The notes beneath the pieces were generated by a model, which saw only the letters and a list, made by a program, of their open reading frames with translations, was not told the origin of the DNA and searched no databases. From an uncultured Candidatus Saccharibacteria bacterium (lineage in GTDB: Bacteria; Patescibacteriota; Minisyncoccia; Phycocordibacterales; JACOZG01), in contig CAYNPK010000001.1 of the NCBI GenBank assembly GCA_964399075.1, positions 160,961 through 224,960 on the forward strand: a stretch of 64,000 nucleotides of DNA. The letters are read 5' to 3'. This document shows, in pieces, positions 10,659 through 55,546 of this stretch (positions are counted from its first letter, which is position 1; each line of letters starts with the position of its first letter). The position numbers and the translations under genes are program-made.

Positions 10659-11130
10659 AGGCTATGATAACTTAACTATGGCACTGGATCAAACAACTAT
10701 CGCTTTCGGCTTGATTATTATCGCTCTATTGGTATCACTGATTTGGATTATTCGTTTAGAACTCCGCCTTAATCGTTTCTGGCGTGGTCGAGAAGGCGTC
10801 AATCTAGAATCGATTATTCTGAAGCTTAGACAAGAAGTTGAAACAGTAGATAAGACAAACAAAGAAATTCAAAAATACTTAATCGATATGGAAAGACGTT
10901 TGAAGCAAAGCGTTCAACATGTTAAAACAATTCGCTTCAACCCCTTCCGCGAGCAAGGTCAAGGGAGCAATCAGAGCTTCGCCACCGCGCTACTTGATGA
11001 GCAGGGCAATGGCACGGTTATCTCCACTCTGTACAGTCGCGACAAAGTTTCTGTTTACGCCAAGCCAATTAAAAACTATCATTCAGAATTCGAAATAACC
11101 GAAGAAGAAAAAATAGTTCTGGCTAAATAA
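10627..11130 (+). CDS. membrane-anchored hypothetical protein (DUF4446-like by recollection)
   Basis: N-terminal TM helix plus conserved C-terminal block IRFNPFREQGQGSNQSFATALLDEQGNG; the annotated start overlaps the divergent desulfurase, so the real start is probably MALDQ near 10678. Confidence 0.4.
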   Translation: MIDFFAILPFIGYDNLTMALDQTTIAFGLIIIALLVSLIWIIRLELRLNRFWRGREGVNLESIILKLRQEVETVDKTNKEIQKYLIDMERRLKQSVQHVKTIRFNPFREQGQGSNQSFATALLDEQGNGTVISTLYSRDKVSVYAKPIKNYHSEFEITEEEKIVLAK

Positions 11131-11148
11131 GGCTAAATAATTATCATC

Positions 11149-12669
11149 ATGAAGACAAACACAAAAACCAAAACTAAAACACCAACAAAGTTAAACCGCC
11201 CGCCGGTGGTTGTCATCATGGGACACATCGACCACGGCAAGTCGACTTTGCTTGATTACATTCGTCACACTAATCTAACGGCCAAAGAAGTCGGTGGCAT
11301 CACTCAAGCGGTCGGCGCTTATGAGGCTGGGGGTATCACCTTCATTGACACTCCGGGTCATGAGGCCTTCAGTCAAATGCGAGAATCTGGTGCCTGCTTA
11401 GCTGATATTACCATTTTAATTATTTCAGCCGAGGATGGCGTTAAGCCACAAACGCTTGAGGCCTTGAAAATAATTAAGGCGTTTAACTTACCCTACATTG
11501 TGGTGATTAATAAAATTGATAAACCTAACGCCAACGCGGAACGAGTACGCCAACAGCTGGCAGAACACGATGTCTTAGTCGAGGATTACGGTGGCAAAAT
11601 TCCGGTTCAGGAAGTCTCCGCCCAAACCGGCCAAGGTGTGCCAGAACTCTTGGAAATTCTGCTCCTCATGGCCGAGATGGAAGAACTCTCTGGCGACGCC
11701 AACAAATTAGGAACCGGTTTCGTTCTGGAATCCAGCATCGATAGCAAGATTGGCATTTCCGCAACTTTAATTATTAAAGACGGCAGACTGCGATCTGGTG
11801 ACTTCATTATTATCAACGGCGAGGTTTCTAAAATAAAAATCTTGCGCGACAGCGCTGGAAAAGCCACTAAAGAGTTAGGTCCGTCGCAACCGGCGCTAGT
11901 CACCGGCTTCAGCAATATTCCGCCAGCTGGAATAACTTTCATTGCCTTCTCCAACAAACAAGAGGCCGAAGAATTTGTCTCTAAGTTAAATCACAAAGAG
12001 GTTACGAACGAGTCATCTCCACCCAAACCAGAACCGGTTGCCGGAAAGATAGAGATACCGCTCATTATTAAAGCCGATGTCGCTGGCGCGATTGAAGCGC
12101 TCAAAAAAGAAATTAATAAACTCTCTAACGATGAGCTAACTTGGAAAATTTGCCAATCCGGGTTGGGGCCGATAAGCGAGAACGACGTTAAATTAGCCAG
12201 CGGATCCGAGCAAGCGATTATTCTTGGCTTCAACGTCAAGATTGATAAAACCGTTCAAGACTTAGCTGATCGTTCGGGAATAGTAATAAAAACTTTTGCT
12301 ATTATCTACAAACTATCCGAATGGTTAATCGAGGAAGCGACGCGTCAGACACCGAAGGTAGAAGTAGAACAAATGATCGGCCAGGCGAAAATTTTAAAAG
12401 TCTTTAGTGCCGGACGAGGCAAGTCTTCCGCCTCCAATAAACAAGTGATCGGTGGCTTGGTAACAGAAGGCAGTTTGGTTGTCGGCAAGAATTGCAAAAT
12501 TCTTAGACGGAAAGCCGAGATCGGTCGCGGCAAAATAGTGGAATTGCAACGCCAGAAATTAGCGACGAAAGAAGTGGCCAAAGACAGCCAATTCGGCGCC
12601 TTGGTAGAAACCAAAACAGCAATAGTCCCGGGCGATTATTTAGAGGTCTTTGATCTGGTTAATAAATAA
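11149..12669 (+). CDS. infB: translation initiation factor IF-2 (short form)
   Basis: GTPase G1 GHIDHGKST, DTPGHEAF, NKID; followed by rbfA as in the canonical operon. Confidence 0.9.
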   Translation: MKTNTKTKTKTPTKLNRPPVVVIMGHIDHGKSTLLDYIRHTNLTAKEVGGITQAVGAYEAGGITFIDTPGHEAFSQMRESGACLADITILIISAEDGVKPQTLEALKIIKAFNLPYIVVINKIDKPNANAERVRQQLAEHDVLVEDYGGKIPVQEVSAQTGQGVPELLEILLLMAEMEELSGDANKLGTGFVLESSIDSKIGISATLIIKDGRLRSGDFIIINGEVSKIKILRDSAGKATKELGPSQPALVTGFSNIPPAGITFIAFSNKQEAEEFVSKLNHKEVTNESSPPKPEPVAGKIEIPLIIKADVAGAIEALKKEINKLSNDELTWKICQSGLGPISENDVKLASGSEQAIILGFNVKIDKTVQDLADRSGIVIKTFAIIYKLSEWLIEEATRQTPKVEVEQMIGQAKILKVFSAGRGKSSASNKQVIGGLVTEGSLVVGKNCKILRRKAEIGRGKIVELQRQKLATKEVAKDSQFGALVETKTAIVPGDYLEVFDLVNK

Positions 12670-20241: not shown

Positions 20242-21810
20242 TCATCTCTTACGATGAGTCTTGACCAAGTCATCCGTCATCTTTTGGAAGTGGAGGAGCT
20301 TAGCCGCTTGGGCAAAAAACTCCGCCAATCCATGCGGATCCCGCCGGAGCACCCACCAAAGCTGATGGGCAAAGAAGATATCCGGCCGGCGGAACAAGTT
20401 CCGCCACAGGAGCCGACCAGCCACGGCCAGATTCCGCCAACTTAGACGACTGGGCCGATGATAAGGACCACGTCTGGAAGCCAGAACCCGACAGCGTTGG
20501 TAGTAATTCCGAGAATGGAAGAGGTGGCGAAGCAATTCCACATAACCATCGATAAGGAATTGCTCCGGCAATTCGGTTTCGAAATTGAAACCGAGATGAT
20601 GGGTGTTGTTACCTCCCGATTCGCCCCGCAAGCGCCCGGCCCTCTTGAGCTCTTGGTAGAGAGGCGTCCCTCGAACGGCCGTCAAAAGTCCCGGCATTGG
20701 CATTACCACACCGGTCGTTAGCAGGAAGGCTGGCAAGACCTCAAAGACATTCGGTTTCTCACCATCGTGACCGATGATGATACCGCCACTAACCTCCAGC
20801 CCTGATTCCTGAATGATGGCGATCTTTTCCGCCAAACTCAAACTGCCTAGATTCTGACCCTTATCCATCGCCTTCAAGACATCTGGATCTGAGGATTCAA
20901 GACCGATAAAGATTTCAGCAAATCCCGCATCAACCATCAAGTCACGGATATCGGCGTGATTAAGCATGCCCAAGTCCGCGCTGGCTTCCGTAAACAGAGA
21001 GAAGGGGTAAGACCGCTCTCTCTGCCAATCGGCCAAGACTGGCAGAAAAACGCGTAGGGCCGACTTATTGCCAATGAAGTTATCATCAACAATGAAGACC
21101 GGACCACGCCAACCAGCTTGATAAAGAGCGTTGAACTCGCGGATCATCTGCTCTGGCGACTTAGCTCGAGTGCGACGACCATAGAGACCGGGAATGTCGC
21201 AGAAGTCGCAAGAGAAGGGACAGCCACGAGAGTATTGGACCGCCATGGAAGCGTAATCGTCCAAGTTGATCAAGTCCCAACGTGGCACCGGAGTCCTGTC
21301 GATCAGAGCCTTACCTTCACGAGTGAGGGAGGCGGGAGACATTCTCTGCACCCAAACACTCTCTTCGTAGATCGCCCGAGGTGTACCAGCGCGCCAGTCT
21401 TCCAGAAAAGGCCAAAGAGTGACTTCGGCTTCGCCAAGAACCAGATAGTCAGCCGGCACATCATCCGGATACAAAGTCGGATGCGGGCCACCACTGACAA
21501 CCTTCTTGCCACGCGAGTGAACTCTCTTGATTACTTCTCTAAGCGACTCACTCTGAACCAACATGGACGAAGTGAGAATCAGATCAGCTTCGTCAATCTG
21601 ATCATCGGTGAGAGATTGAACATTGAGATCAACCAACCCGGTAACCAGAAAATCGTCAGGCAACATGGCGGCCACAGTTAAGAGTCCGGTTGGAGGCATG
21701 GCAGACTTTCTGCCTGAGATTTCCACAGCTTTTTGGAAACCCCAAAAGGAAATCGGGAATTTGGGATAGACCAAGAGAACTTTCGTACGGATGCGTGTAT
21801 GAAGACGCAT
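20242..21810 (-). CDS. B12-binding-domain radical SAM protein with C-terminal DUF4070-like extension
   Basis: N-terminal cobalamin-binding region, radical SAM CPFSCDFC (CxxxCxxC) motif, 522 aa; GC ~52% versus ~40% in flanks. Confidence 0.8.
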   Translation of the reverse strand: MRLHTRIRTKVLLVYPKFPISFWGFQKAVEISGRKSAMPPTGLLTVAAMLPDDFLVTGLVDLNVQSLTDDQIDEADLILTSSMLVQSESLREVIKRVHSRGKKVVSGGPHPTLYPDDVPADYLVLGEAEVTLWPFLEDWRAGTPRAIYEESVWVQRMSPASLTREGKALIDRTPVPRWDLINLDDYASMAVQYSRGCPFSCDFCDIPGLYGRRTRAKSPEQMIREFNALYQAGWRGPVFIVDDNFIGNKSALRVFLPVLADWQRERSYPFSLFTEASADLGMLNHADIRDLMVDAGFAEIFIGLESSDPDVLKAMDKGQNLGSLSLAEKIAIIQESGLEVSGGIIIGHDGEKPNVFEVLPAFLLTTGVVMPMPGLLTAVRGTPLYQELKRAGRLRGESGGNNTHHLGFNFETELPEQFLIDGYVELLRHLFHSRNYYQRCRVLASRRGPYHRPSRLSWRNLAVAGRLLWRNLFRRPDIFFAHQLWWVLRRDPHGLAEFFAQAAKLLHFQKMTDDLVKTHRKR

Positions 21811-23462: not shown

Positions 23463-23507
23463 AAAACCGGTAGCGAAGTATTACTTCGTTACCGGTTTTG
23501 TTTTTCT
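23463..23507. terminator. bidirectional rho-independent terminator
   Basis: AAACCGGTAGCGAAGTA-TTACTTCGTTACCGGTT palindrome flanked by A-run upstream and T-run downstream, between convergent genes. Confidence 0.55.
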
Positions 23508-23539
23508 AAAAAGAACAAATCCTTTCTGCCATGTGGCTC

Positions 23540-24283
23540 TTATGGAGACCGACGGTCTTCCACGACAACCAGAATCTCTCCGGAGTAGTGGTGATGGTGG
23601 TGATGTTCCACCACCAAGGGCTTGCGGTCTCGACACTGATCAGGTTGAGGGCGGAACGCGCCAACTTCTCTACCCGACCCAGCCAGCCCAGACTTTTCTG
23701 GGACAGTGTAAGCCGGTGGAGGCGCAGGCGGTCGCGAAACCGTCACCTCCGGCGAAGGAGGGGCCTCTGTCTCCTTCCGTTCTTTCGCTTCTTCAGGCGG
23801 AGGAGCAGAAGGAATCTTCGACACCTTGGGGGTATCATCTACCACTGCCGAAGACAAATCAGAAGCCGGTCGAGACTGGATGGCCTCCAGCACCTCCTGA
23901 TGACGCTCTTCAGTGGTAGCCTCCGAGGCCCTGTAACTGGCCTGCAGATTCCCCACCCCCTTCAAAATGTCTCCATTCTGGGAACATCCCTGAATGTGGT
24001 GAATCACCAAGAACAGAAACAACATTCCGAAGAGAGCAATGGTACCCTTGAGGATACGCTCGAGGCCGGACGGATGATTGCGGATGGCATCGGCGACAGC
24101 GGGGCGAGAGCTATCCGTCTGACCTTGCTGAACAGCGTTGGTCAAGCGGGTCATATTCTCACTTAGGTCGGTGAGTAGCGGGACCACCACACCAGCCACC
24201 GCCCGACCAACACTTTCGGCGGTCAAGGCCGGCTGAGTCGGTGGATCGGGAAGAGTTCGACGGGTGATTACTTTCTTGGCCAT
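23540..24283 (-). CDS. hypothetical single-pass membrane protein with Pro-rich linker and HHHHHH tract
   Basis: Longest ORF in a GC-rich stretch; start placed at the second ATG preceded by GGAAAGGAGG; TM IALFGMLFLFLVI; C-terminal VVEHHHHHHYSGE; competing plus-strand ORFs lack signals. Confidence 0.45.
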   Translation of the reverse strand: MAKKVITRRTLPDPPTQPALTAESVGRAVAGVVVPLLTDLSENMTRLTNAVQQGQTDSSRPAVADAIRNHPSGLERILKGTIALFGMLFLFLVIHHIQGCSQNGDILKGVGNLQASYRASEATTEERHQEVLEAIQSRPASDLSSAVVDDTPKVSKIPSAPPPEEAKERKETEAPPSPEVTVSRPPAPPPAYTVPEKSGLAGSGREVGAFRPQPDQCRDRKPLVVEHHHHHHYSGEILVVVEDRRSP

Positions 24284-35115: not shown

Positions 35116-36423
35116 ATGACTAACAAGAAACGAGAAGCCGGCGACGAATTACGAGTACCAAGGGGGATGCGTGATATTATTGGCGAAGATTATTATGCCC
35201 AACAAGGCTTCAGTGAAAAAGCGGCCGAAATTGCCATGTATTACGGCTTCACCCCCATTGAAACGCCGGTCTTGGAATTCGAAAGTCTTTTTACTTCCGG
35301 AGTCGGAGTTGGCACGGATATTGTTGATAAAGAAATGTATACGCTGAAAACTCGCGGTGGTGATCATCTCGCCCTCCGCAGTGAGGGCACGGCTCCAATT
35401 ATGCGCGCCTACTTTGAGAATGGCCTCCAATCCCAACCTCAACCAGTGATGTTGTATTACCACGGACCTTTCTTCCGTCACGATCGACCACAACGAGGAC
35501 GCTATCGCCAATTTTATCAATTTGGTTTGGAAATTATCGGTACCACCAAGAGCATCGCCGACGCCATGATTATCCGTTTGACTACTCTAATCGTGGCAGA
35601 AGCTGGTTTGCGTTCCACTAAAGTAATCGTCAACAGTCTTGGCGACAAAGAATGTCGTTCAATTTATCGTCGAGAGCTGGTTAATTATTATCGTAAACAC
35701 GCGCGCTATTTGTGTCCCGATTGTCGAGAGAGGTTAAAAACTAATCCCCTACGCCTCTTGGATTGTAAGAATATAAAATGCCAAGAACTTAAACTTGGCG
35801 CCCCAACTTCTATCTCTTATTTATGCAATAGTTGCAAAACTCACTTCAAAGAAACCCTGGAATATCTAGAAACAATGGGGATTGATTATGAAATCAGTCA
35901 CACTCTAGTGCGAGGTCTAGATTATTACACTCGAACGATTTTTGAAATTGTTGACCCGGCCGTCACCACAGACGGTGTTGTTGCTGAACCGTTATCAATC
36001 GGTGGCGGTGGACGTTATGATTATTTAGCCAAAGCGCTCGGAGCTAAAAAGGAGGTACCGGGCGTCGGTAGCGCCATTGGCATTGATCGAGTCATGCTCG
36101 CGCCAGGTTACATCAAACAAAATCCGAGAATTATTAAGAAACCGAAGATATTCTTCATTCAATTATCCTTCGAGGCGAAAATGAAAAGTCTCCAGGTGAT
36201 AGAAATTTTGCGGAAAGCTAAAGTTCCTCTCACTCAATCGCTGTCTAAAGACTCTCTGATGGTCCAATTAGCGATTGCGGAGAAACTTGAAGTGCCTTAC
36301 ACGATTATTTTGGGTCAAAAAGAAGCGATCGATAATACAGTCATTGTCCGAAATATGTCTAACCGCTCTCAAGAAATAGTTCCCATAGAAAAACTAAGCG
36401 AGTATTTGAAAAAATTAAAATAG
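35116..36423 (+). CDS. hisS: histidyl-tRNA synthetase
   Basis: PRGMRDIIGEDY N-terminal motif, class II motifs, GGGRYD, C-terminal anticodon-binding domain. Confidence 0.9.
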   Translation: MTNKKREAGDELRVPRGMRDIIGEDYYAQQGFSEKAAEIAMYYGFTPIETPVLEFESLFTSGVGVGTDIVDKEMYTLKTRGGDHLALRSEGTAPIMRAYFENGLQSQPQPVMLYYHGPFFRHDRPQRGRYRQFYQFGLEIIGTTKSIADAMIIRLTTLIVAEAGLRSTKVIVNSLGDKECRSIYRRELVNYYRKHARYLCPDCRERLKTNPLRLLDCKNIKCQELKLGAPTSISYLCNSCKTHFKETLEYLETMGIDYEISHTLVRGLDYYTRTIFEIVDPAVTTDGVVAEPLSIGGGGRYDYLAKALGAKKEVPGVGSAIGIDRVMLAPGYIKQNPRIIKKPKIFFIQLSFEAKMKSLQVIEILRKAKVPLTQSLSKDSLMVQLAIAEKLEVPYTIILGQKEAIDNTVIVRNMSNRSQEIVPIEKLSEYLKKLK

Positions 36424-36470
36424 CATGACTTGGATGACAACGAGTTAGCGTAAATTATTATTCGCCAACT

Positions 36471-37481
36471 ATGAACAAAGAAAAACCGCCAGTAGTAGCA
36501 TATTTAGCGATCTTGGGAAGATTTACTTTACTTCCAGGAATTCAACAGATCAAAATTGGGGAATTCGGTATTGATTGCTTAATACGATATTCCTTTGCAG
36601 AACATATCATAGATGAAAAGAAAAATATAAAAGTTCCTACTGAAGACTGTACGATCTTTTCAATTGAACATAAAAATTACAAAAGAGAGGATTTGAACAA
36701 GTCACAAAAAGTCGATGAAGTCCTTGAAAAATCACTCATAGCAATTAGCGAACTGTCACTTTGGTCAAAATCGAAAGAACAAGTCGGTAAAATTTCTAGT
36801 TATATAAGACAAGTAGGTAGATCAGACGTTAAATATTTTTTTGTTGAGATATCAGATGACTCATTAATTGAGTGGAAAAATGGATCCTATTGGCAAAGTC
36901 TTAAGGGGTTCCAAATTTTAAGCGGTTTTCTAAGTAACATGGTTGTAACAAATGGACCATCGCAAAATCCAACACCATCAGCCACGAGAAGAATCCTTAG
37001 CTGTTTAGACTTAATTAATCTTGGTTTTTATTCAGATGCCTTCATTACTGCTTTTGCATTATTAGATGATTTAACACAAGAAGTCTTGAAGGCAGGTTTT
37101 GAAAAAAAGAAATTATCGTTAAAAGAACAAAAAAATATTCTTAGGGGTATTACAGAAGATAGGTTAGCAAACTTCTTAACCAGTATATTAAAATTATGCG
37201 ATTGGGTGAGTCTTGAAAAAGAAAACGAAAAACTATTTAAAAAGCTGAAAAAGATTAATACAAAAAGAAATGACATAATGCATGGCTCAGTAAGATTAAC
37301 TAGAAATACTGCAATTGAATACATTGATATAATATTAGAAATCCTCTCTTTTTTAAGGCAAAATCCATTTGATTACACAATTGAAGAATTCCCAACTTTG
37401 AAACTCATTGAACCAGAGTATCTGAAACTATCAAATCTCGAAAAAGGCGAATCACCCGCAAACATGACCGATTATACTTAG
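36471..37481 (+). CDS. hypothetical protein with C-terminal HEPN-like Rx4HG motif
   Basis: AT-rich (~30% GC) orphan gene; KRNDIMHGS near the C-terminus fits the HEPN Rx4-6H signature; rest unassigned. Confidence 0.35.
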   Translation: MNKEKPPVVAYLAILGRFTLLPGIQQIKIGEFGIDCLIRYSFAEHIIDEKKNIKVPTEDCTIFSIEHKNYKREDLNKSQKVDEVLEKSLIAISELSLWSKSKEQVGKISSYIRQVGRSDVKYFFVEISDDSLIEWKNGSYWQSLKGFQILSGFLSNMVVTNGPSQNPTPSATRRILSCLDLINLGFYSDAFITAFALLDDLTQEVLKAGFEKKKLSLKEQKNILRGITEDRLANFLTSILKLCDWVSLEKENEKLFKKLKKINTKRNDIMHGSVRLTRNTAIEYIDIILEILSFLRQNPFDYTIEEFPTLKLIEPEYLKLSNLEKGESPANMTDYT

Positions 37482-37738
37482 ACGTTATGTGAAATTATTT
37501 TTTATTTTATGGGAATACAGTTTAGTAAAGAAAATCAATATGGCGCGTTAGTTGGACTTATAGTATTCATTATTTTCCTACTAATTTTACTTTTTTAACC
37601 ATTTTTATCGTCATTATTTGAATTAAAAAATTATGTTGCTTAACAGCCGATACGCAACATTTATTAAATGATCGCATGATCGGCAAATGTTATACATAAT
37701 CACGAACTTCAACCTTAAATATAAGAAATACTTAGGGC

Positions 37739-37766
37739 TTGACAAAAATTTACTAGGTGATATAAT
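37739..37766 (+). promoter_or_regulatory. consensus sigma70 promoter TTGACA-N16-TATAAT for the cold-shock gene
   Basis: Perfect hexamers, ~65-nt 5'UTR then AAAGGAGAAAAAG-ATG. Confidence 0.6.
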
Positions 37767-37834
37767 GGTAAAAGGTTCGTTCATTGTGGAATGGACGAAA
37801 AAAAGTGGGCCACTTCTCGCGAAAGGAGAAAAAG

Positions 37835-38233
37835 ATGGCCAAGAAGATGGGAATTGAGACCGGAACCGTGAAATCATTCTCTCCGCAGACCGGCTACGGC
37901 TTCTTCACTTCAGACGGCGATGGCGATGATGTCTACTTCCGCATCGGAATGATGCGCGAGGTCATGCAAGGGCACCGGGATAACCCCTACTTCGCGGGCA
38001 GAGACCGCGGAGGGGAAGTGTTGATTGGGATGCCGGTGCTCTTCCTCCGGGAGACGGAAGCTGGAGGGCGGACCTGGGCCAGGCTCTGGGGCGTTCGCCC
38101 CTTCTGGCATCAGGAACGGCGCCAGATCATCCCGATCGCTGACGCGGTCAAGATGATCGAGATGAGGGGGCGCTTGCCGGTGCAGAAGAAGGCGAAGGGA
38201 GAGGGAAGGAAGAGAAAGAAGGCCAGCGCCTGA
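37835..38233 (+). CDS. cold-shock-domain protein with ~70-aa Arg/Gly-rich C-terminal extension
   Basis: GTVKSFSPQTGYGFFTSDGDGDDVYFRIG resembles the CspA RNP1 region; ~60% GC versus ~38% flanks; start taken at MAKKMG after a strong RBS. Confidence 0.6.
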   Translation: MAKKMGIETGTVKSFSPQTGYGFFTSDGDGDDVYFRIGMMREVMQGHRDNPYFAGRDRGGEVLIGMPVLFLRETEAGGRTWARLWGVRPFWHQERRQIIPIADAVKMIEMRGRLPVQKKAKGEGRKRKKASA

Positions 38234-38276
38234 CACCCCCCTCGTCCCTCGCCCCTCCCCTGATCCGGCACAACCC

Positions 38277-38322
38277 CACCCAGCTAAGACTTGATAATCT
38301 TAGTTGGGTGGTTTTTTATTTG
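38277..38322 (+). terminator. rho-independent terminator
   Basis: 12-bp stem CACCCAGCTAAG/CTTAGTTGGGTG followed by GTTTTTTATTTG. Confidence 0.65.
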
Positions 38323-38356
38323 CCTAAAACGAGAGACTATGTTAACCTAACTTATT

Positions 38357-38614
38357 ATGATTATGGTGGAAGTTAAACGAGACGAGACAGAATCCAGTAG
38401 TGGCGCCCTGCGTCGATTTTCTAAGCGAGTCCAAATCGCCGGCTTCTTGCGACGAGTCAAAGGCTTGCGCTTCCGCCAACGCTCACTCTCTGATTACAAA
38501 AAACAGCGATCAGCCCTGGTCCGCCTAGAACGCCAAGCAAAATACGAACGACTAAAAAAATTAGGGAAATTACCAACTCCCACCTTCAGCAGACGTGCTC
38601 CCAAGAGAAGTTAG
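38357..38614 (+). CDS. rpsU: 30S ribosomal protein S21
   Basis: VEVKRDE...ALRRFSKRVQIAGFLRRVKGLRFRQR matches the S21 pattern; basic C-terminus. Confidence 0.7.
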   Translation: MIMVEVKRDETESSSGALRRFSKRVQIAGFLRRVKGLRFRQRSLSDYKKQRSALVRLERQAKYERLKKLGKLPTPTFSRRAPKRS

Positions 38615-43567: not shown

Positions 43568-43639
43568 TGACCCTACCGGGAATCGAACCCGGATTACCGG
43601 CTTGAAAAGCCGATGTCCTAACCGTTAGACGATAGGGCC
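43568..43639 (-). tRNA. tRNA-Glu (TTC)
   Basis: Minus-strand GGCCCTA acceptor, anticodon loop TTTTCAA, GGGTTCGATTCCCGG T-arm. Confidence 0.8.
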
Positions 43640-43717: not shown

Positions 43718-43807
43718 GGAGGGTTGGCAGAGTGGTCTAACGCGCCGCACTCGAAATGCGGTTGGGGAGCAATCCCCTCACAGGTTCAAATCCTGTACCC
43801 TCCGCCA
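43718..43807 (+). tRNA. tRNA-Ser (CGA), long variable arm, CCA encoded
   Basis: GGAGGGT acceptor, anticodon loop CTCGAAA, ~20-nt variable arm, terminal GCCA. Confidence 0.85.
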
Positions 43808-43811
43808 ATTT

Positions 43812-44630
43812 TTATAATGGACTTCTAATATTCTTCAACTTGGGATTTGTCACTTGTGTATAAATTTGAGTTGTACGAATGTTTGAGTGTCCAAGTAATT
43901 CTTGCACATAACGAACGTCAGTTCCGTTTTCCAATAAATGTGTCGCAAACGAATGCCTAAGTGAATGAAAAGTTGCAGGTTTACTGATCTTTGCTTTGGC
44001 TAAACTTTTTCTAAATACTTTTTGCAAAGATGTTGTTGTCAATTTCCCACCACGATTTGAGCCAAAGAGAAACTCATTCGTATTTTTACCAGCCACAACG
44101 TTTCGCAAAGCATCTTGCAACTTTTCAGGCAAGACGCTAATTCTGTCTTTTTTACCTTTTGCCCCTTTGATATGTACCACGAGCTCATCGATATCCAAAT
44201 CAGCAACCTTGAGATCGACAACTTCGCTCACGCGCAAACCACAAGCATAACCAAGTGAAATCATCAGTCGATATTTTGTATTATCCGTTGTTTCAATAAT
44301 TTTCTCAATTTCCGCATGGGATAACACTATCGGTAACTTCTTACTCCTTTTAGCAAACTTCAAATCGATTTTTTGAGGATCTTTCAAAACTTCTGCATAC
44401 AAAAACTTAATTGCATTTAGGGCGAGGTTGATTGTTTGTGGAGACTGATTGCGTCTGTGTTTATCAAGCAAAAAATCCTCAAGCGCTTTTTGCTTATTTG
44501 TGATTCCCCTTTCTTTCGAAAAATTGATATACTCTTTTATGTAGAGCAAATAGGCTTTACATGTTTTAGGCGAATAGTTACGTAAACGCAACGCACGATC
44601 AGTTTTATCTAAAACATTTTCCATATTCAA
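43812..44630 (-). CDS. tyrosine site-specific recombinase (phage-integrase / Xer-like)
   Basis: Catalytic box HSLRHSFATHLLENGTDVRYVQELLGHSNIRTTQIYTQV; its stop is 5 nt from the tRNA-Ser 3' end. Confidence 0.85.
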   Translation of the reverse strand: MNMENVLDKTDRALRLRNYSPKTCKAYLLYIKEYINFSKERGITNKQKALEDFLLDKHRRNQSPQTINLALNAIKFLYAEVLKDPQKIDLKFAKRSKKLPIVLSHAEIEKIIETTDNTKYRLMISLGYACGLRVSEVVDLKVADLDIDELVVHIKGAKGKKDRISVLPEKLQDALRNVVAGKNTNEFLFGSNRGGKLTTTSLQKVFRKSLAKAKISKPATFHSLRHSFATHLLENGTDVRYVQELLGHSNIRTTQIYTQVTNPKLKNIRSPL

Positions 44631-44700
44631 AGAATAGCGAAAGTTTGTATAATATACAAGAATTTGTTACAATACGAATGGAAAAGTTAGATAATAACCA

Positions 44701-44727
44701 GTTAGCCGACATATTTTGACGGCAATT
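44701..44727. repeat. left copy of 27-bp inverted repeat bracketing the racemase gene
   Basis: GTTAGCCGACATATTTTGACGGCAATT; reverse complement of 45480-45506 matches at 25 of 27 positions. Confidence 0.7.
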
Positions 44728-44770
44728 TAAAACCAAAGATTTAAAAACTTTTATTTTAAAACAATAAATT

Positions 44771-45460
44771 ATGAAAACAGTAGGAATAATTGGAGGTCTC
44801 GGACCTGAAACAACATCGGAATTTTACCTCGATATAATTTTTTCGTGTCAAAAAAAAGACAGAAGTAGCAGGCCATCTATCATAATCGCCAGCGTTCCTT
44901 TGCCTTATGCAATCGAAGATGAAGCTATATCAAAAAATATTGGGATTGAAAGAATAGCACCTTTCTTAGTTGCAGAGGCAAAGAGACTAGAAAAAGCTGG
45001 CGCTGATTTCTTAGTCATGCCATGCAATTCTCTTCATGTTTTTATCAAAGAAATCAGGAACGCTGTCGATATCCCTGTTTTAAGCATTATTGAAGAAACG
45101 GTAAAATTCCTCAAGACAAATAATTTGAATAAGGTTGGCATAGTATCAACTTCTGCGACGATTCAGAATAAATTATATGAAACTGCATTTGAAAAAAACG
45201 GGATTATTTATGTAACGCCAGATGCTTTCCAACAGGCAAAAATGGGGAAATTTATTCTGAATCTTGTTACTGGTCAACAAAAAAATCGTGACAGAGAAGA
45301 CCTTATTCAAATTATTAATGACTTCGAGAAAAAAGATGTAGATTGTGTTGCACTTGCTTGCACCGACCTCCAATTATTAATTCCTAAACATCCACGATTA
45401 AAAATATTCGACACAATGAAGATACTTGCGGATGCGACTGTTGAGGAGATATTGAAATAA
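44771..45460 (+). CDS. aspartate/glutamate racemase family protein
   Basis: MKTVGIIGGLGPETT N-terminus and two-Cys racemase fold (PCNSLH, ACTDLQ), 229 aa. Confidence 0.8.
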   Translation: MKTVGIIGGLGPETTSEFYLDIIFSCQKKDRSSRPSIIIASVPLPYAIEDEAISKNIGIERIAPFLVAEAKRLEKAGADFLVMPCNSLHVFIKEIRNAVDIPVLSIIEETVKFLKTNNLNKVGIVSTSATIQNKLYETAFEKNGIIYVTPDAFQQAKMGKFILNLVTGQQKNRDREDLIQIINDFEKKDVDCVALACTDLQLLIPKHPRLKIFDTMKILADATVEEILK

Positions 45461-45479
45461 AAGTTTTTAAAATATTGAA

Positions 45480-45506
45480 AATTGCCGTCAAAATACGACG
45501 GCTAAC
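45480..45506. repeat. right copy of 27-bp inverted repeat bracketing the racemase gene
   Basis: AATTGCCGTCAAAATACGACGGCTAAC; contains an internal perfect hairpin GCCGTC-N7-GACGGC. Confidence 0.7.
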
Positions 45507-45612
45507 AGCGTGTATGCGGTTCCGCTTCGCTCCGCCCATATCGCTATCGCGACATCGCATACACGCGTACGTTGTCCGCAATTCCGCTCCGCTCCATTGC
45601 GGATGTCGCACC
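45507..45612. repeat. GC-rich repeat-dense element (nested inverted repeats and direct repeats)
   Basis: GCGTGTATGCG...CGCATACACGC (11-bp IR), CCGCAAT...ATTGCGG, CCGCCCAT...ATGGGCGG, and direct repeats TTCCGCTTCGCTCCGCC / TTCCGCTCCGCTCCATT. Confidence 0.5.
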
Positions 45613-52886: not shown

Positions 52887-54186
52887 CCTACTCCACAGCC
52901 CTTCGGATGGAACGACGGTTGTGCTCTACGGCTGGGTGAAAGCCCGCCGTCGGCATAATCACGTCGTTTTTCTGGACATCACGGACTCCACCGGTTCGAT
53001 GCAGTGCGTGGTCGAAGTTGGCAACAAATCAGCTTTTGAACTCGCGCGGCGCATGAGCCAAGAGACGGCAGTTAAGATCACTGGTGTCATTGCAGATACT
53101 TGCAGAGCGAACCCATCGCGAGAAATCCGCGTTCACAACATCGAGATCGTCGGAGTGAGTACGATTAATGTCTCTCCGTATCCGCGGGGAAACATCGACA
53201 TCCAAGACCCAAGGTTGCAGGAGCAACTTTTGGACAAACGGCATTTTTATCTCCGCAACGAGAAACTTGCCGCCATCCTGAAGTTTCGTCACATCCTCAC
53301 GAGGATCGTGCATCAATGGTTCCATAAGAATGGGTTCATTGAGATCCACGCTCCGGTGCTGACACCGACGCCGCTATACGACGATCGTACTGCTATGGCA
53401 ATCAAGGTACACGAGCAAGATGTATACCTAACACAGTGCGTTGGGTTCTATCTCGAACAAGCAGTTCATGCTCTCGAGAAGATCTACAACATCGGTCCCA
53501 GCTTCCGCGCCGAAGAGAGCCGCTCCAAGAGACATCTCATGGAGTACTGGCACATCAAGGCAGAGTTGGCGTTCGTGGACTTTGAGGACATGGCTTTAGT
53601 AGTCGAGCGGTTCATCCATGATGTGAGCGAGCAGTGTATCCGCGAGGGTTGCGAGCTTGCGAATATCATCGGCACCGAGGTGTGCAGTGACGGCCTTAAA
53701 ACTCCGTTTCCGCGCATTGACTACGCCGAGGCGGTGGAGTGGCTCAGGACGCAGGGTTCCGATATCGAGTTTGGCAAAAGCATGGGTTCCGACGAGGAAA
53801 CTATGCTCTGCCAGCGGTTCGGCGACACTCCGTTTTGGATTGTCGGCATTCCACGATCCATCGAACCCTTTCCTTATGTGGTTGACGCAGCCGATACTCG
53901 TCGAACGAAGACGGCTGATTTGATCGCAAGTCGAGGGTTTGGTGAGCTTCTCGGTATTGCCGAGAAGATCCATTCTCTGTCAATGCTCGATGAACGACTG
54001 GCAGAGAAAGGTAAAGCCGGTGACTCCCGCTACGAATGGTTGCGGGACCTTCGTCAATATGGCTGTGTACCGCACGGAGGCTTTGGCATGGGTCTTGAAC
54101 GGTTGATCCGTTGGCTCTTGCAGATCCCTCATGTGCGAGACACCATTCCTTTCCACCGAGCGTTCGATAGAAGGATTGATCCATGA
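52864..54186 (+). CDS. asparaginyl-tRNA synthetase-like class IIb aaRS (island copy)
   Basis: N-terminal OB fold, motif 2 GPSFRAEESRSKRHLMEYWHIKAELAF (AsnRS-like EFW/EAE pattern), motif 3 GGFGMGLERL. Confidence 0.75.
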   Translation: MKTTYAVDLLHSPSDGTTVVLYGWVKARRRHNHVVFLDITDSTGSMQCVVEVGNKSAFELARRMSQETAVKITGVIADTCRANPSREIRVHNIEIVGVSTINVSPYPRGNIDIQDPRLQEQLLDKRHFYLRNEKLAAILKFRHILTRIVHQWFHKNGFIEIHAPVLTPTPLYDDRTAMAIKVHEQDVYLTQCVGFYLEQAVHALEKIYNIGPSFRAEESRSKRHLMEYWHIKAELAFVDFEDMALVVERFIHDVSEQCIREGCELANIIGTEVCSDGLKTPFPRIDYAEAVEWLRTQGSDIEFGKSMGSDEETMLCQRFGDTPFWIVGIPRSIEPFPYVVDAADTRRTKTADLIASRGFGELLGIAEKIHSLSMLDERLAEKGKAGDSRYEWLRDLRQYGCVPHGGFGMGLERLIRWLLQIPHVRDTIPFHRAFDRRIDP

Positions 54187-54238
54187 ATACCCCATATATC
54201 AAGCCAATCACGGCAAGGCACACTGAAAGGAGCCCATT

Positions 54239-55546
54239 ATGCAAAGGACACTGATCAAGCAGATCGGATCCGAGGTCGGCAAGACCGTTCGGATCTGCGG
54301 ATGGGTGGAAGTGCTCCGCGATCAAAAGCGGATGCAATTCCTCATCATCCGCGATCACACCGGTAGCACGCAAGTGCTTCACGAGAAGTCGGCAAACGCC
54401 GAACTGACGGTAGCTATCGCCGACCTCACGCCTGAAAGTGCAGTGGAAATCATCGGCAAGGTTATTGCCAATCCGGTGGTCAAGCTGGGCGGGCTGGAAG
54501 TAGTGGTCGAGTCGGTAAACATCGTCAGCAAAGCAGAAGCACTTCTGCCGTTTGGCGAGAACCCGACTATCGAAACCCGGCTGGACTGGAGATTTCTGGA
54601 TCTGCGTACCCCGCAGAACCTGCTCGTCTTCAAGATCCAGACGGCGGCCGAGCACGCCATGCGTTCGTTCTGGGCATCGGAGGGGTTCATTGAAATGCAC
54701 TCCCCGAAGTTCATGGGTAGCGCAAGCGAGTCCGGTGCGGAGCTCTTCGAGGTAAAGTACTTCGATCGCAAGGCGTATCTCGCTCAATCGCCACAGTTCT
54801 ACAAACAGATGGCGATGACGGCGGGGTTCGACCGTGTGTTCGAGATTGGGCCGGTCTTTCGGGCCAACCCGTCTTTTACTTCGCGGCACGACACGGAGTT
54901 CACCAGCGTGGACGTCGAAATCTCGTGGATTGACTCCCACGAGGACGTTATGCAACTTGAGGAACGTTGGCTTCGCCACGTGCTTCAAGCGGTGAAAGCC
55001 GAGTATGGCGAGGAGATCAAGGCGACGTTCGGCACGGAGATCGCGATTCCCGAGCTTCCGTTTCCGCGCGTGACTATGGAAGAGGCGTACAATATCCTCG
55101 ACCAAATGGGTCACCGCATTGAGCGGGGCGAGAAAGGCGACCTCGATCCGGAGGGCGAGAGGCTCTTGTGTCGGCACTTCCATGAAAAGACCGGCCACGA
55201 GTTCGTCTTCGTCACCGAGTACCCCGCTGTGGTCCGGGCGTTCTACCACATGCGTCCCGAAGGCAAACCCCGTCTTACCAAGAGCTTCGACCTTCTCTGG
55301 AAGGGACTTGAGGTGACGACGGGGGCGCAAAGGGAGCATCGCTACGAAATCCTGATGGAACAAGCTAAGGAGAAGGGGCTCTCACTTGAACCCATTCAGT
55401 ACTATCTGAACTTCTTCCGCTATGGCTGTCCACCTCACGGCGGTTATGGCTTCGGCCTCACCCGCATGCTCATGGTGATGCTGGGTGCAAAAAACGTGCG
55501 CGAGGTGACATACCTCTACCGAGGCGTCAACCGACTCACTCCGTAG
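54239..55546 (+). CDS. archaeal-type aspartyl-tRNA synthetase paralog (island copy)
   Basis: Same length and ~60% identity with the native aspS at 50929-52248, including the FRANPSFTSRHDTEF block, but ~57% GC. Confidence 0.8.
   Translation: MQRTLIKQIGSEVGKTVRICGWVEVLRDQKRMQFLIIRDHTGSTQVLHEKSANAELTVAIADLTPESAVEIIGKVIANPVVKLGGLEVVVESVNIVSKAEALLPFGENPTIETRLDWRFLDLRTPQNLLVFKIQTAAEHAMRSFWASEGFIEMHSPKFMGSASESGAELFEVKYFDRKAYLAQSPQFYKQMAMTAGFDRVFEIGPVFRANPSFTSRHDTEFTSVDVEISWIDSHEDVMQLEERWLRHVLQAVKAEYGEEIKATFGTEIAIPELPFPRVTMEEAYNILDQMGHRIERGEKGDLDPEGERLLCRHFHEKTGHEFVFVTEYPAVVRAFYHMRPEGKPRLTKSFDLLWKGLEVTTGAQREHRYEILMEQAKEKGLSLEPIQYYLNFFRYGCPPHGGYGFGLTRMLMVMLGAKNVREVTYLYRGVNRLTP

Follow-up and report, generated by a model that had tools for sequence, protein, structure and literature searches.

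What is the markedly AT-rich gene that sits among translation and division genes of a Paceibacterota (Patescibacteria) genome, and is it part of a defence or toxin system? The question arises from a window of 64,000 nucleotides, that is, the whole stretch of DNA that was analysed, and it is of more than local relevance. Few effectors are as common in bacterial immunity and toxin systems as HEPN RNases, and most of their families are uncharacterised. The original prediction described an orphan gene with a C-terminal HEPN-like signature, followed by a hydrophobic micro-ORF resembling type I toxin peptides, and proposed a possible defence or toxin-antitoxin locus. Both reading frames are present exactly where they had been placed, according to the ORF list and the raw sequence (Table 1).

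The gene had been predicted to stand alone between hisS and a cold-shock islet, and to have about 30% GC, below the local average. Both statements agree with our data. It is flanked upstream by hisS (35116-36423) and downstream by a cold-shock-domain-like gene (37835-38233; likely start 37835, with AAAGGAG before the start), after which come rpsU, ybeY, ftsA and ftsZ. Its GC content is 31.9%, compared with 43.8% for the window (sd 4.6% across segments of the same size); less than 1% of 1011-nt segments are equally GC-poor, and the GC minimum of the entire 64 kb falls within this gene. The low-GC block in which it lies starts right after the hisS stop codon and ends at about 37735. A weak promoter-like match precedes the gene, and sigma-70-like sites are no more numerous in the region than in shuffles; if used, this promoter would give a HEPN mRNA with almost no leader.

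Table 1. Features of the low-GC locus, in window coordinates
Feature	Position	Strand	Description and basis
Two-domain protein, 336 aa (N-terminal alpha+beta domain, then predicted HEPN domain)	36471-37481	+	ATG start; ORF list and raw sequence; 29 homologues; AlphaFold2 model
N-terminal domain, residues 1-155	36471-36935	+	Six strands, long helix, hairpin, helix (predicted)
C-terminal all-helical HEPN domain (predicted), residues about 165-300	36963-37370	+	Helical insert 217-251
Predicted catalytic motif R266-N267-D-I-M-H271	37266-37283	+	Rx4H with polar N after R; alignments of close and distant relatives, AlphaFold2 model
Low-GC block	36424-37735	.	31.1% GC; holds the HEPN gene and the AT-rich spacer including the micro-ORF; composition and synteny
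Weak sigma-70-like promoter match	36434-36461	+	ATGACA-16-TATTAT, 10/12; consensus scan only; ends 9 nt before the ATG
29-codon micro-ORF, MGIQFSKENQYGALVGLIVFIIFLLILLF	37509-37598	+	ATG start; polar head, 17-18-residue hydrophobic tail; in frame with the HEPN gene

The position of the gene was compared with that in relatives reached via a HisS protein search and contig look-ups, in which the best named HisS matches belong to Candidatus Vogelbacteria / Paceibacterota (64-76% identity). Three related contigs have a gene order in common: S1, pth, lepB, hisS, a slot, rpsU, (ybeY), ftsA, ftsZ, trxB and aroA. The slot is empty in one of them (L017), and is filled with an unrelated 148-aa gene in the second (L016) and an unrelated 363-aa gene in the third (L018). 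Since the slot of the relatives is either empty or occupied by unrelated genes, the HEPN gene is an insertion; together with the cold-shock-domain-like gene after it, it is lineage-specific cargo of a variable slot of this genome, and the hisS-rpsU junction is thereby marked as variable in the lineage. The cold-shock-domain-like gene was also considered as a partner of the HEPN gene and was rejected; no homologue has such a neighbour.

Contrary to the original prediction, the gene is no orphan. Among 5.8 billion proteins searched, 29 homologues were found at E<=1e-34, which are 33-59% identical to its product over nearly the full length; all of them are unnamed or 'hypothetical', and none carries a precomputed Pfam domain. 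A profile built from these homologues retrieved 169 representatives at E<=1e-3 among 1.84 billion 50%-identity clusters; about 40 of them are close, and the others, proteins of about 300-350 aa, make up a wider set. This is a genuine family, though a rare one. When one genome was taken per species (185,579 species), relatives were encoded at only seven loci, in Massilia, Luteimonas, Methylophilus, MAGs of Phycisphaeraceae, Aegiribacteria and Myxococcaceae, and an unclassified MAG; apart from the last, these loci span Betaproteobacteria, Gammaproteobacteria, Planctomycetota, Myxococcota and Aegiribacteria. No phage record encodes a relative of the protein. At all nine homologue loci examined for composition, the GC of the gene is lower than that of its surroundings (e.g., 0.44 vs 0.64 and 0.43 vs 0.59). 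The low GC, the insertion in the slot and the patchy spread of homologues with a GC below that of their hosts mark the gene as laterally acquired.

These observations bear on the possibility that the gene serves its Patescibacteria host as a housekeeping RNA-processing enzyme, or as a HEPN protein that binds without catalysis. Such a role would suit a gene lying between hisS and rpsU/ybeY/ftsA/ftsZ, and some HEPN proteins are indeed processing enzymes or binding domains (PMC3710099). It is made extremely unlikely, however, by the absence of the gene from the three closest syntenic relatives, by a composition that is atypical for the genome, by the occurrence in so few species genomes (7/185,579) of unrelated phyla, and by the strict invariance of three motif residues (R, N and H), which is described in the following paragraph.

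The original prediction of a C-terminal HEPN Rx4-6H signature has stood up well. The peptide quoted there, KKINTKRNDIMHGSVRLTRN, corresponds to residues 259-278, and the signature within it is an invariant RNxxxH at the canonical helix position. Two alignments were used, one of the 29 close homologues (A1) and one with 75 distant relatives (A3; 76 sequences in all, about 20% identity). A1 has 25 invariant positions, R266, N267 and H271 among them; in A3, no column other than R266 and H271 is invariant, and at least 90% of the sequences retain N267. An AlphaFold2 model made on the family alignment (pLDDT 88.9, pTM 0.85) places an N-terminal alpha+beta domain before a C-terminal helical domain (residues 170-296), and the latter has the form expected of the HEPN superfamily, whose all-alpha, up-and-down bundle has four core helices and often an insert between helices 2 and 3. 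In the model, helix 253-271 ends with the six residues of the motif, R266 to H271, and a loop then leads to the final helix 278-296. Helix 187-212 carries an acidic pair, D199-D200, and Q203, all invariant in A1, with D199 and Q203 kept in at least 90% of A3. In the HEPN superfamily, an RNxxxH-type motif lies at the end of the helix preceding the last helix, the residue after R being a polar N, D or H, and a conserved acidic residue lies near the motif in helix 2, often as Ex3[KR] (PMC3710099). The position of the motif and the polar N267 agree with this description; the acidic residues of helix 187-212 are compatible with it, and the exact Ex3[KR] spacing is absent around D199-D200.

Curated models gave weaker signals. 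Sub-threshold Pfam matches to HEPN_RiboL-PSP (6.6e-5), HEPN_MAE_28990 (1.9e-4) and HEPN_Apea cover residues of about 180-300; the scores are 23.3 bits against a cut-off of 28.4 for PF18735 and 22.1 bits against a cut-off of 26.8 for PF18737. PADLOC returned weak, partial and likewise sub-threshold matches to the HEPN halves of Csx1/Csm6 models (E about 4e-4), NCBIfam nothing useful, and PHROGs a single weak match of unknown function. Pfam, NCBIfam and PADLOC contain no model whose threshold is exceeded by a member of the core or the wider family. The A3 profile found nothing among PDB sequences, and phmmer against PDB gave only noise (PTPN22, E 0.15). Structure prediction and the Foldseek check proposed at the outset pointed in the predicted direction, Foldseek much more weakly: a HEPN-like helical domain was modelled, and the two Foldseek matches of highest probability in PDB (0.89) are both HEPN proteins, without a significant E-value. 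HEPN families are mutually undetectable by sequence, and for this reason the failed test against curated models weighs little compared with fold and motif. The HEPN assignment of the C-terminal half is well supported by the modelled fold together with the motif in the sequences. The strictly invariant R, N and H point to catalysis, and we consider it very probable that this is a HEPN-fold protein with a functional RNase site.

The N-terminal domain is likewise conserved in the wider family. Its conserved residues are D59, E94, W98, K100, R113, G116, D119, K121 and W135. At least 90% of the A3 sequences retain N93, R113 and G116, and D119 is the A3 consensus residue, giving an R113-x2-G116-x2-D119 element. 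When A1 and A3 were compared by hhalign, the consensus lines agreed along the N-terminal domain too, in a comparison that is biased since both alignments start with the protein of the window. The two-domain architecture appears to be fixed across the family, as judged from the sequences, because the profile matches that cover the N-terminal domain only are short proteins resembling fragments. The fold of this domain is not assignable to a known family; a PD-(D/E)xK nuclease site and an RnlA-type domain were both considered and rejected.

The neighbours of the homologues vary by locus (for example, hrcA and AHSA1, ligA and uppS, or a secretin and ASCH), and no gene recurs as a neighbour across the homologue loci examined. 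Some of these loci are mobile. Two homologues (L003 and L004) lie in an island with a resolvase and an integrase, and another (L012) has a Rep_trans gene (27.0 bits, below the 29.6-bit Pfam cut-off) and a resolvase downstream. In Methylophilus and Aegiribacteria, the homologue is the first ORF beside a divergent integron integrase (TIGR02249, 462 and 402 bits, respectively; cut-off 265), and its start codon is preceded, at 23-24 nt, by the canonical core site GTTAGGC. In Luteimonas, GTTAGGC is found 9 nt before the true start codon of the homologue, and an attC-like imperfect hairpin, GCCTAAC...CTTAGGC, follows its stop codon (z -3.8). These three homologues are integron gene cassettes: each is a single ORF with core GTTRRRY sites, and intI lies beside those of Methylophilus and Aegiribacteria. 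The cassettes carry the HEPN gene alone. The copy in the window has no GTTRRRY site upstream and no integrase nearby.

Links with defence were also sought, the mobile and defence contexts being judged by eye at about 15 loci, without statistics. A distant relative (P0080) adjoins a full-length Shedu SduA gene, and this one case is the sole link with a defence system; most close homologues lie among housekeeping genes and not in recognisable defence islands, so that the search for homologues in such islands had a mixed outcome. No match to a known defence-system model passed in PADLOC or PHROGs. Another distant relative, on a Burkholderia gladioli plasmid, has a 4-nt overlap with an upstream ParA-like AAA_31 gene; no ParA gene lies beside the window gene or its close homologues. 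Taking the indirect evidence of the lateral acquisition, the integron cassettes and the relative beside Shedu together, the defence or toxin locus of the original prediction is plausible.

The mobility of the gene as a single-ORF cassette implies that the protein must carry its own control, which leads to the reading that we slightly favour: a self-contained, trigger-activated HEPN endoribonuclease of abortive-infection or toxin type, moving as a single gene, as suggested by analogy with known HEPN systems. Its main rival draws on the same cassettes. The protein could be a stress or dormancy RNase that slows translation under stress, or a selfish 'addiction' gene that stabilises the mobile cassette carrying it, with no role against phages; the evidence of fold and motif applies equally to this explanation, and a hypothesis of this kind has been raised for the integron HEPN family of PDB 3jrt (PMC3710099). 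We nevertheless regard it as unlikely. A stand-alone toxin without an antidote cannot be a classical addiction module, and HEPN-only integron cassettes have been found experimentally to act against phages (bioRxiv 10.1101/2024.07.02.601686).

The remaining element of the locus is the micro-ORF. Its length is ordinary: when the spacer is dinucleotide-shuffled, 27-45% of the shuffles contain an ATG ORF that reaches or exceeds 29 codons. The 17-18-residue hydrophobic run is a rarity, found in 0.02-0.04% of shuffles. Across the non-gene frames of the entire 64 kb there are just two comparable hydrophobic loci, the micro-ORF being one of them; the other, near 11189, is antisense to a gene start and presumably noise. 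With two such loci in the window, one of them presumably noise, a sequence like the micro-ORF is to be expected by chance about once per 64 kb. Type I toxin peptides such as Fst, TisB and Ibs are similar to the micro-ORF product in size (29 aa) and in having one hydrophobic segment of transmembrane length; the micro-ORF differs from them in lacking conservation and any family match.

A toxin-antitoxin locus could be built around this element in two ways: the 29-aa peptide would be a type I membrane toxin under the control of an antisense RNA, or the HEPN protein would be the toxin, and a product of the spacer or micro-ORF would neutralise it. In its favour, the micro-ORF shares the low-GC block with the HEPN gene, its hydrophobic run is rare for non-coding frames, and the minus strand has a weak promoter-like match (9/12) inside the 3' end of the micro-ORF. 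The missing Shine-Dalgarno motif before the micro-ORF is uninformative, because only 7/47 genes of the window have a Shine-Dalgarno-like motif. Conservation, however, speaks against such a locus. Nine homologous genes, inspected over 450 nt on either side, are flanked by no small hydrophobic ORF, and they also have no conserved neighbour; the orthologous slot in the three relatives holds other sequence; and the peptide has no tblastn match in plasmids. The integron cassettes contain the HEPN gene and nothing else, and an equally hydrophobic ORF has arisen, presumably by chance, near 11189. The spacer has no Rfam match, and its predicted RNA fold does not stand out from shuffles (z -1.2). No predicted terminator separates the HEPN gene from the micro-ORF. 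The type I toxin-like interpretation of the micro-ORF, for which conservation had been named as the check, is therefore unsupported, and we rate a toxin-antitoxin locus as highly unlikely. Most likely, the micro-ORF is not part of the HEPN system, and the chance that its peptide is made at all appears to be low.

With the micro-ORF set aside, the trigger-activated nuclease can be considered in terms of mechanism. Proteins that keep the Rx4H motif are metal-independent endoribonucleases, and the motifs of two protomers build the active site (PMC3710099; PMC13043305). By analogy with established HEPN biochemistry, the protein would be a metal-independent endoribonuclease that acts as a homo-oligomer, in which two Rx4H motifs form one composite site, and its cleavage products would have 2',3'-cyclic phosphate ends. 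As the gene is a single ORF with no antitoxin gene or recurrent partner, the nuclease must be harmless until activated. It would probably be kept silent within the protein itself, with the fixed N-terminal domain as the likely control element and a candidate for both auto-inhibition and the recognition of a trigger or substrate. A cue such as a phage component might switch the nuclease on, and the activated enzyme would then cut tRNA, rRNA or mRNA and arrest the cell, following the abortive-infection logic of HepS.

It is also possible, though on balance doubtful, that the protein is the first example of a new family of solo HEPN nucleases that sense a trigger and act by abortive infection, in which the N-terminal domain would be a new sensor or RNA-recognition module, and which was spread by integrons and reached a reduced-genome Patescibacteria symbiont. 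A still bolder variant takes up the micro-ORF again. The TAG stop codon of the HEPN gene is followed by nine sense codons and then by the micro-ORF in the same frame (a 1-in-3 coincidence by chance), and read-through of the TAG might join the two into a membrane-anchored form of the nuclease in this genome; in the alignment, such a hydrophobic tail is absent from all 29 homologues of the HEPN protein.

A rare family with an apparently fixed two-domain architecture that moves as a single-ORF cassette is a compact candidate for a new trigger-sensing domain, and a candidate immune or toxin gene is added to those of Patescibacteria, though in principle such a gene is not surprising. If the stand-alone abortive-infection reading is true, it would be one of few recognisable immune genes in a Patescibacteria symbiont. 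If the protein proves to be just another HEPN toxin, the gain would be modest.

Compared with known systems, the 336-aa protein is a HEPN superfamily member in its modelled fold and its sequence motif, and fits no described family; the two-domain family is itself undescribed and has no Pfam, NCBIfam or PADLOC model. The best profile matches are HEPN_RiboL-PSP (PF18735) and the HEPN_MAE_28990/MAE_18760-like family (PF18737), which cover residues 191-301 including the motif, at scores below the gathering cut-offs and with only 4/76 and 1/76 relatives matched, respectively. Members of the MAE_18760 group form an operon with a ParA/Soj ATPase (PMC3710099), a pairing that recalls the relative on the Burkholderia gladioli plasmid and is absent at the window gene and its close homologues. 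The HepT/MNT type VII toxins (SO_3166, PDB 5yep; 7ae2; 8xdj) are single-domain proteins of about 130 aa that always occur with a nucleotidyltransferase antitoxin gene, whereas no such gene lies beside the window gene or any homologue examined. RnlA/LsoA is also among the closest known systems. The logic of the favoured reading is closest to that of HepS, a solo HEPN anticodon nuclease of abortive infection, which a phage tail-tip protein opens into its active form (PMC13043305). HepS from the Salmonella Gifsy-1 prophage (PDB 9oik) is a protein of 218 aa that lacks the 155-residue N-terminal alpha+beta domain of the window protein, and the two have no detectable sequence similarity. In genetic organisation, the three integron-borne homologues resemble Esos, a HEPN-only anti-phage integron cassette (bioRxiv 10.1101/2024.07.02.601686), as well as the Taranis/AbiJ-like cassettes and the 'integron cassette HEPN' family (PDB 3jrt), all of which are, like them, HEPN integron cassettes with a single ORF.

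The junction between hisS and rpsU is a variable slot within the Paceibacterota lineage to which the window belongs. In three related contigs (L016, L017 and L018), all genes flanking the slot are syntenic with those of the window, and the slot itself is empty (L017) or holds an unrelated gene, of high GC and 148 aa in L016 and of 363 aa in L018. In the window it carries a 1.9-kb islet of two genes, both ends of which are flanked by an 18-nt direct repeat, with copies (GTTAGCGTAAATTATTAT and GTTAACCTAACTTATTAT) matching at 15 of 18 positions. The right copy lies in the same place as an element 5′ of rpsU in the relatives (GCTAGTCTA / GTTAGCCTAAAG); the repeat could be an insertion-derived duplication of a target or promoter segment, or else due to chance.

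Coordinates of the features (window positions unless a locus is named)
Feature	Locus	Position	Strand	Remark
CSD-like gene region	window	37739-38311		132 aa; likely start 37835, stop 38233
CSD-like gene promoter	window	37739-37766		perfect TTGACA-16-TGnTATAAT
CSD-like gene terminator	window	38276-38311		14 bp
Direct repeat	window	36444-36461; 38341-38358		GTTAGCGTAAATTATTAT; GTTAACCTAACTTATTAT
hisS-rpsU slot	window	36424-38356		
hisS-rpsU slot	L016	6312-6932		
hisS-rpsU slot	L017	6312-6410		
hisS-rpsU slot	L018	6287-7415		
Integron cassette homologue	L011	5900-7085		Luteimonas
Integron cassette homologue	L013	4115-6705		Methylophilus aquaticus
Integron cassette homologue	L014	4543-6632		Aegiribacteria MAG
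Distant family member	L022	4442-6399		Burkholderia gladioli plasmid NZ_CP031451.1
Distant family member	L023	3140-5963		
tRNA gene	window	43568-43639	-	Rfam tRNA, 65.5 bits
tRNA gene	window	43718-43804	+	Rfam tRNA, 54 bits

The second gene of the islet, which resembles cold-shock-domain (CSD) genes, has a GC content of 60.7% (vs 43.8% for the window) and a good ribosome site (AAAGGAG). Cold-shock domain models match only the first ~30 residues of its product (E ~1e-3), with faint matches to PADLOC CSD_V and the retron Se72 effector; no phage match was found, and no HEPN homologue has a counterpart of this gene beside it.

The genome is compositionally patchy outside the studied region too. Several patches of the window exceed 55% GC; compositional outliers lie at 20250-20400, 23500-23900, 44350-45560 and 53450-55200, the largest high-GC patch (54200-55200) reaching 58% over 1 kb. 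Besides the HEPN-gene region, a second stretch falls below 35% GC (1011-nt windows starting at 44350-44550). Shine-Dalgarno-like motifs occur within 20 nt of the start in 7 of 47 long ORFs only, AT-rich sequence preceding most starts, and the two tRNA genes are divergently oriented.

The micro-ORF is in frame with the HEPN gene: from 37479 to 37598, the TAG of the latter is followed by nine sense codons (TLCEIIFYF) and then MGIQ. Read-through of this TAG, if it occurs, would append a hydrophobic helix to the C-terminus of the HEPN protein; all HEPN homologues lack a tail of this type. As an empirical case of a hydrophobic ORF arising by chance, we used a second highly hydrophobic small ORF (31 aa, MCPMMTTTGGRFNFVGVLVLVFVFVFMMIII; ~11100-11190, minus strand), antisense to the start of a 506-aa gene (11149-12669).

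Three homologues of the HEPN gene are carried as gene cassettes of integrons, namely those of Luteimonas, Methylophilus aquaticus and an Aegiribacteria MAG. They are marked variously by an adjoining intI (L013, L014), the core site GTTAGGC and, in L011, a hairpin resembling attC; the Methylophilus copy is cut off at residue ~232 by an IS110-family element. More distant relatives have a partner gene or a defence gene beside them: the plasmid-borne Burkholderia gladioli member, flanked by H-NS genes, shares 4 nt with the gene of a ParA-like AAA_31 ATPase, and the L023 member follows a full-length Shedu SduA gene at a distance of 217 nt.
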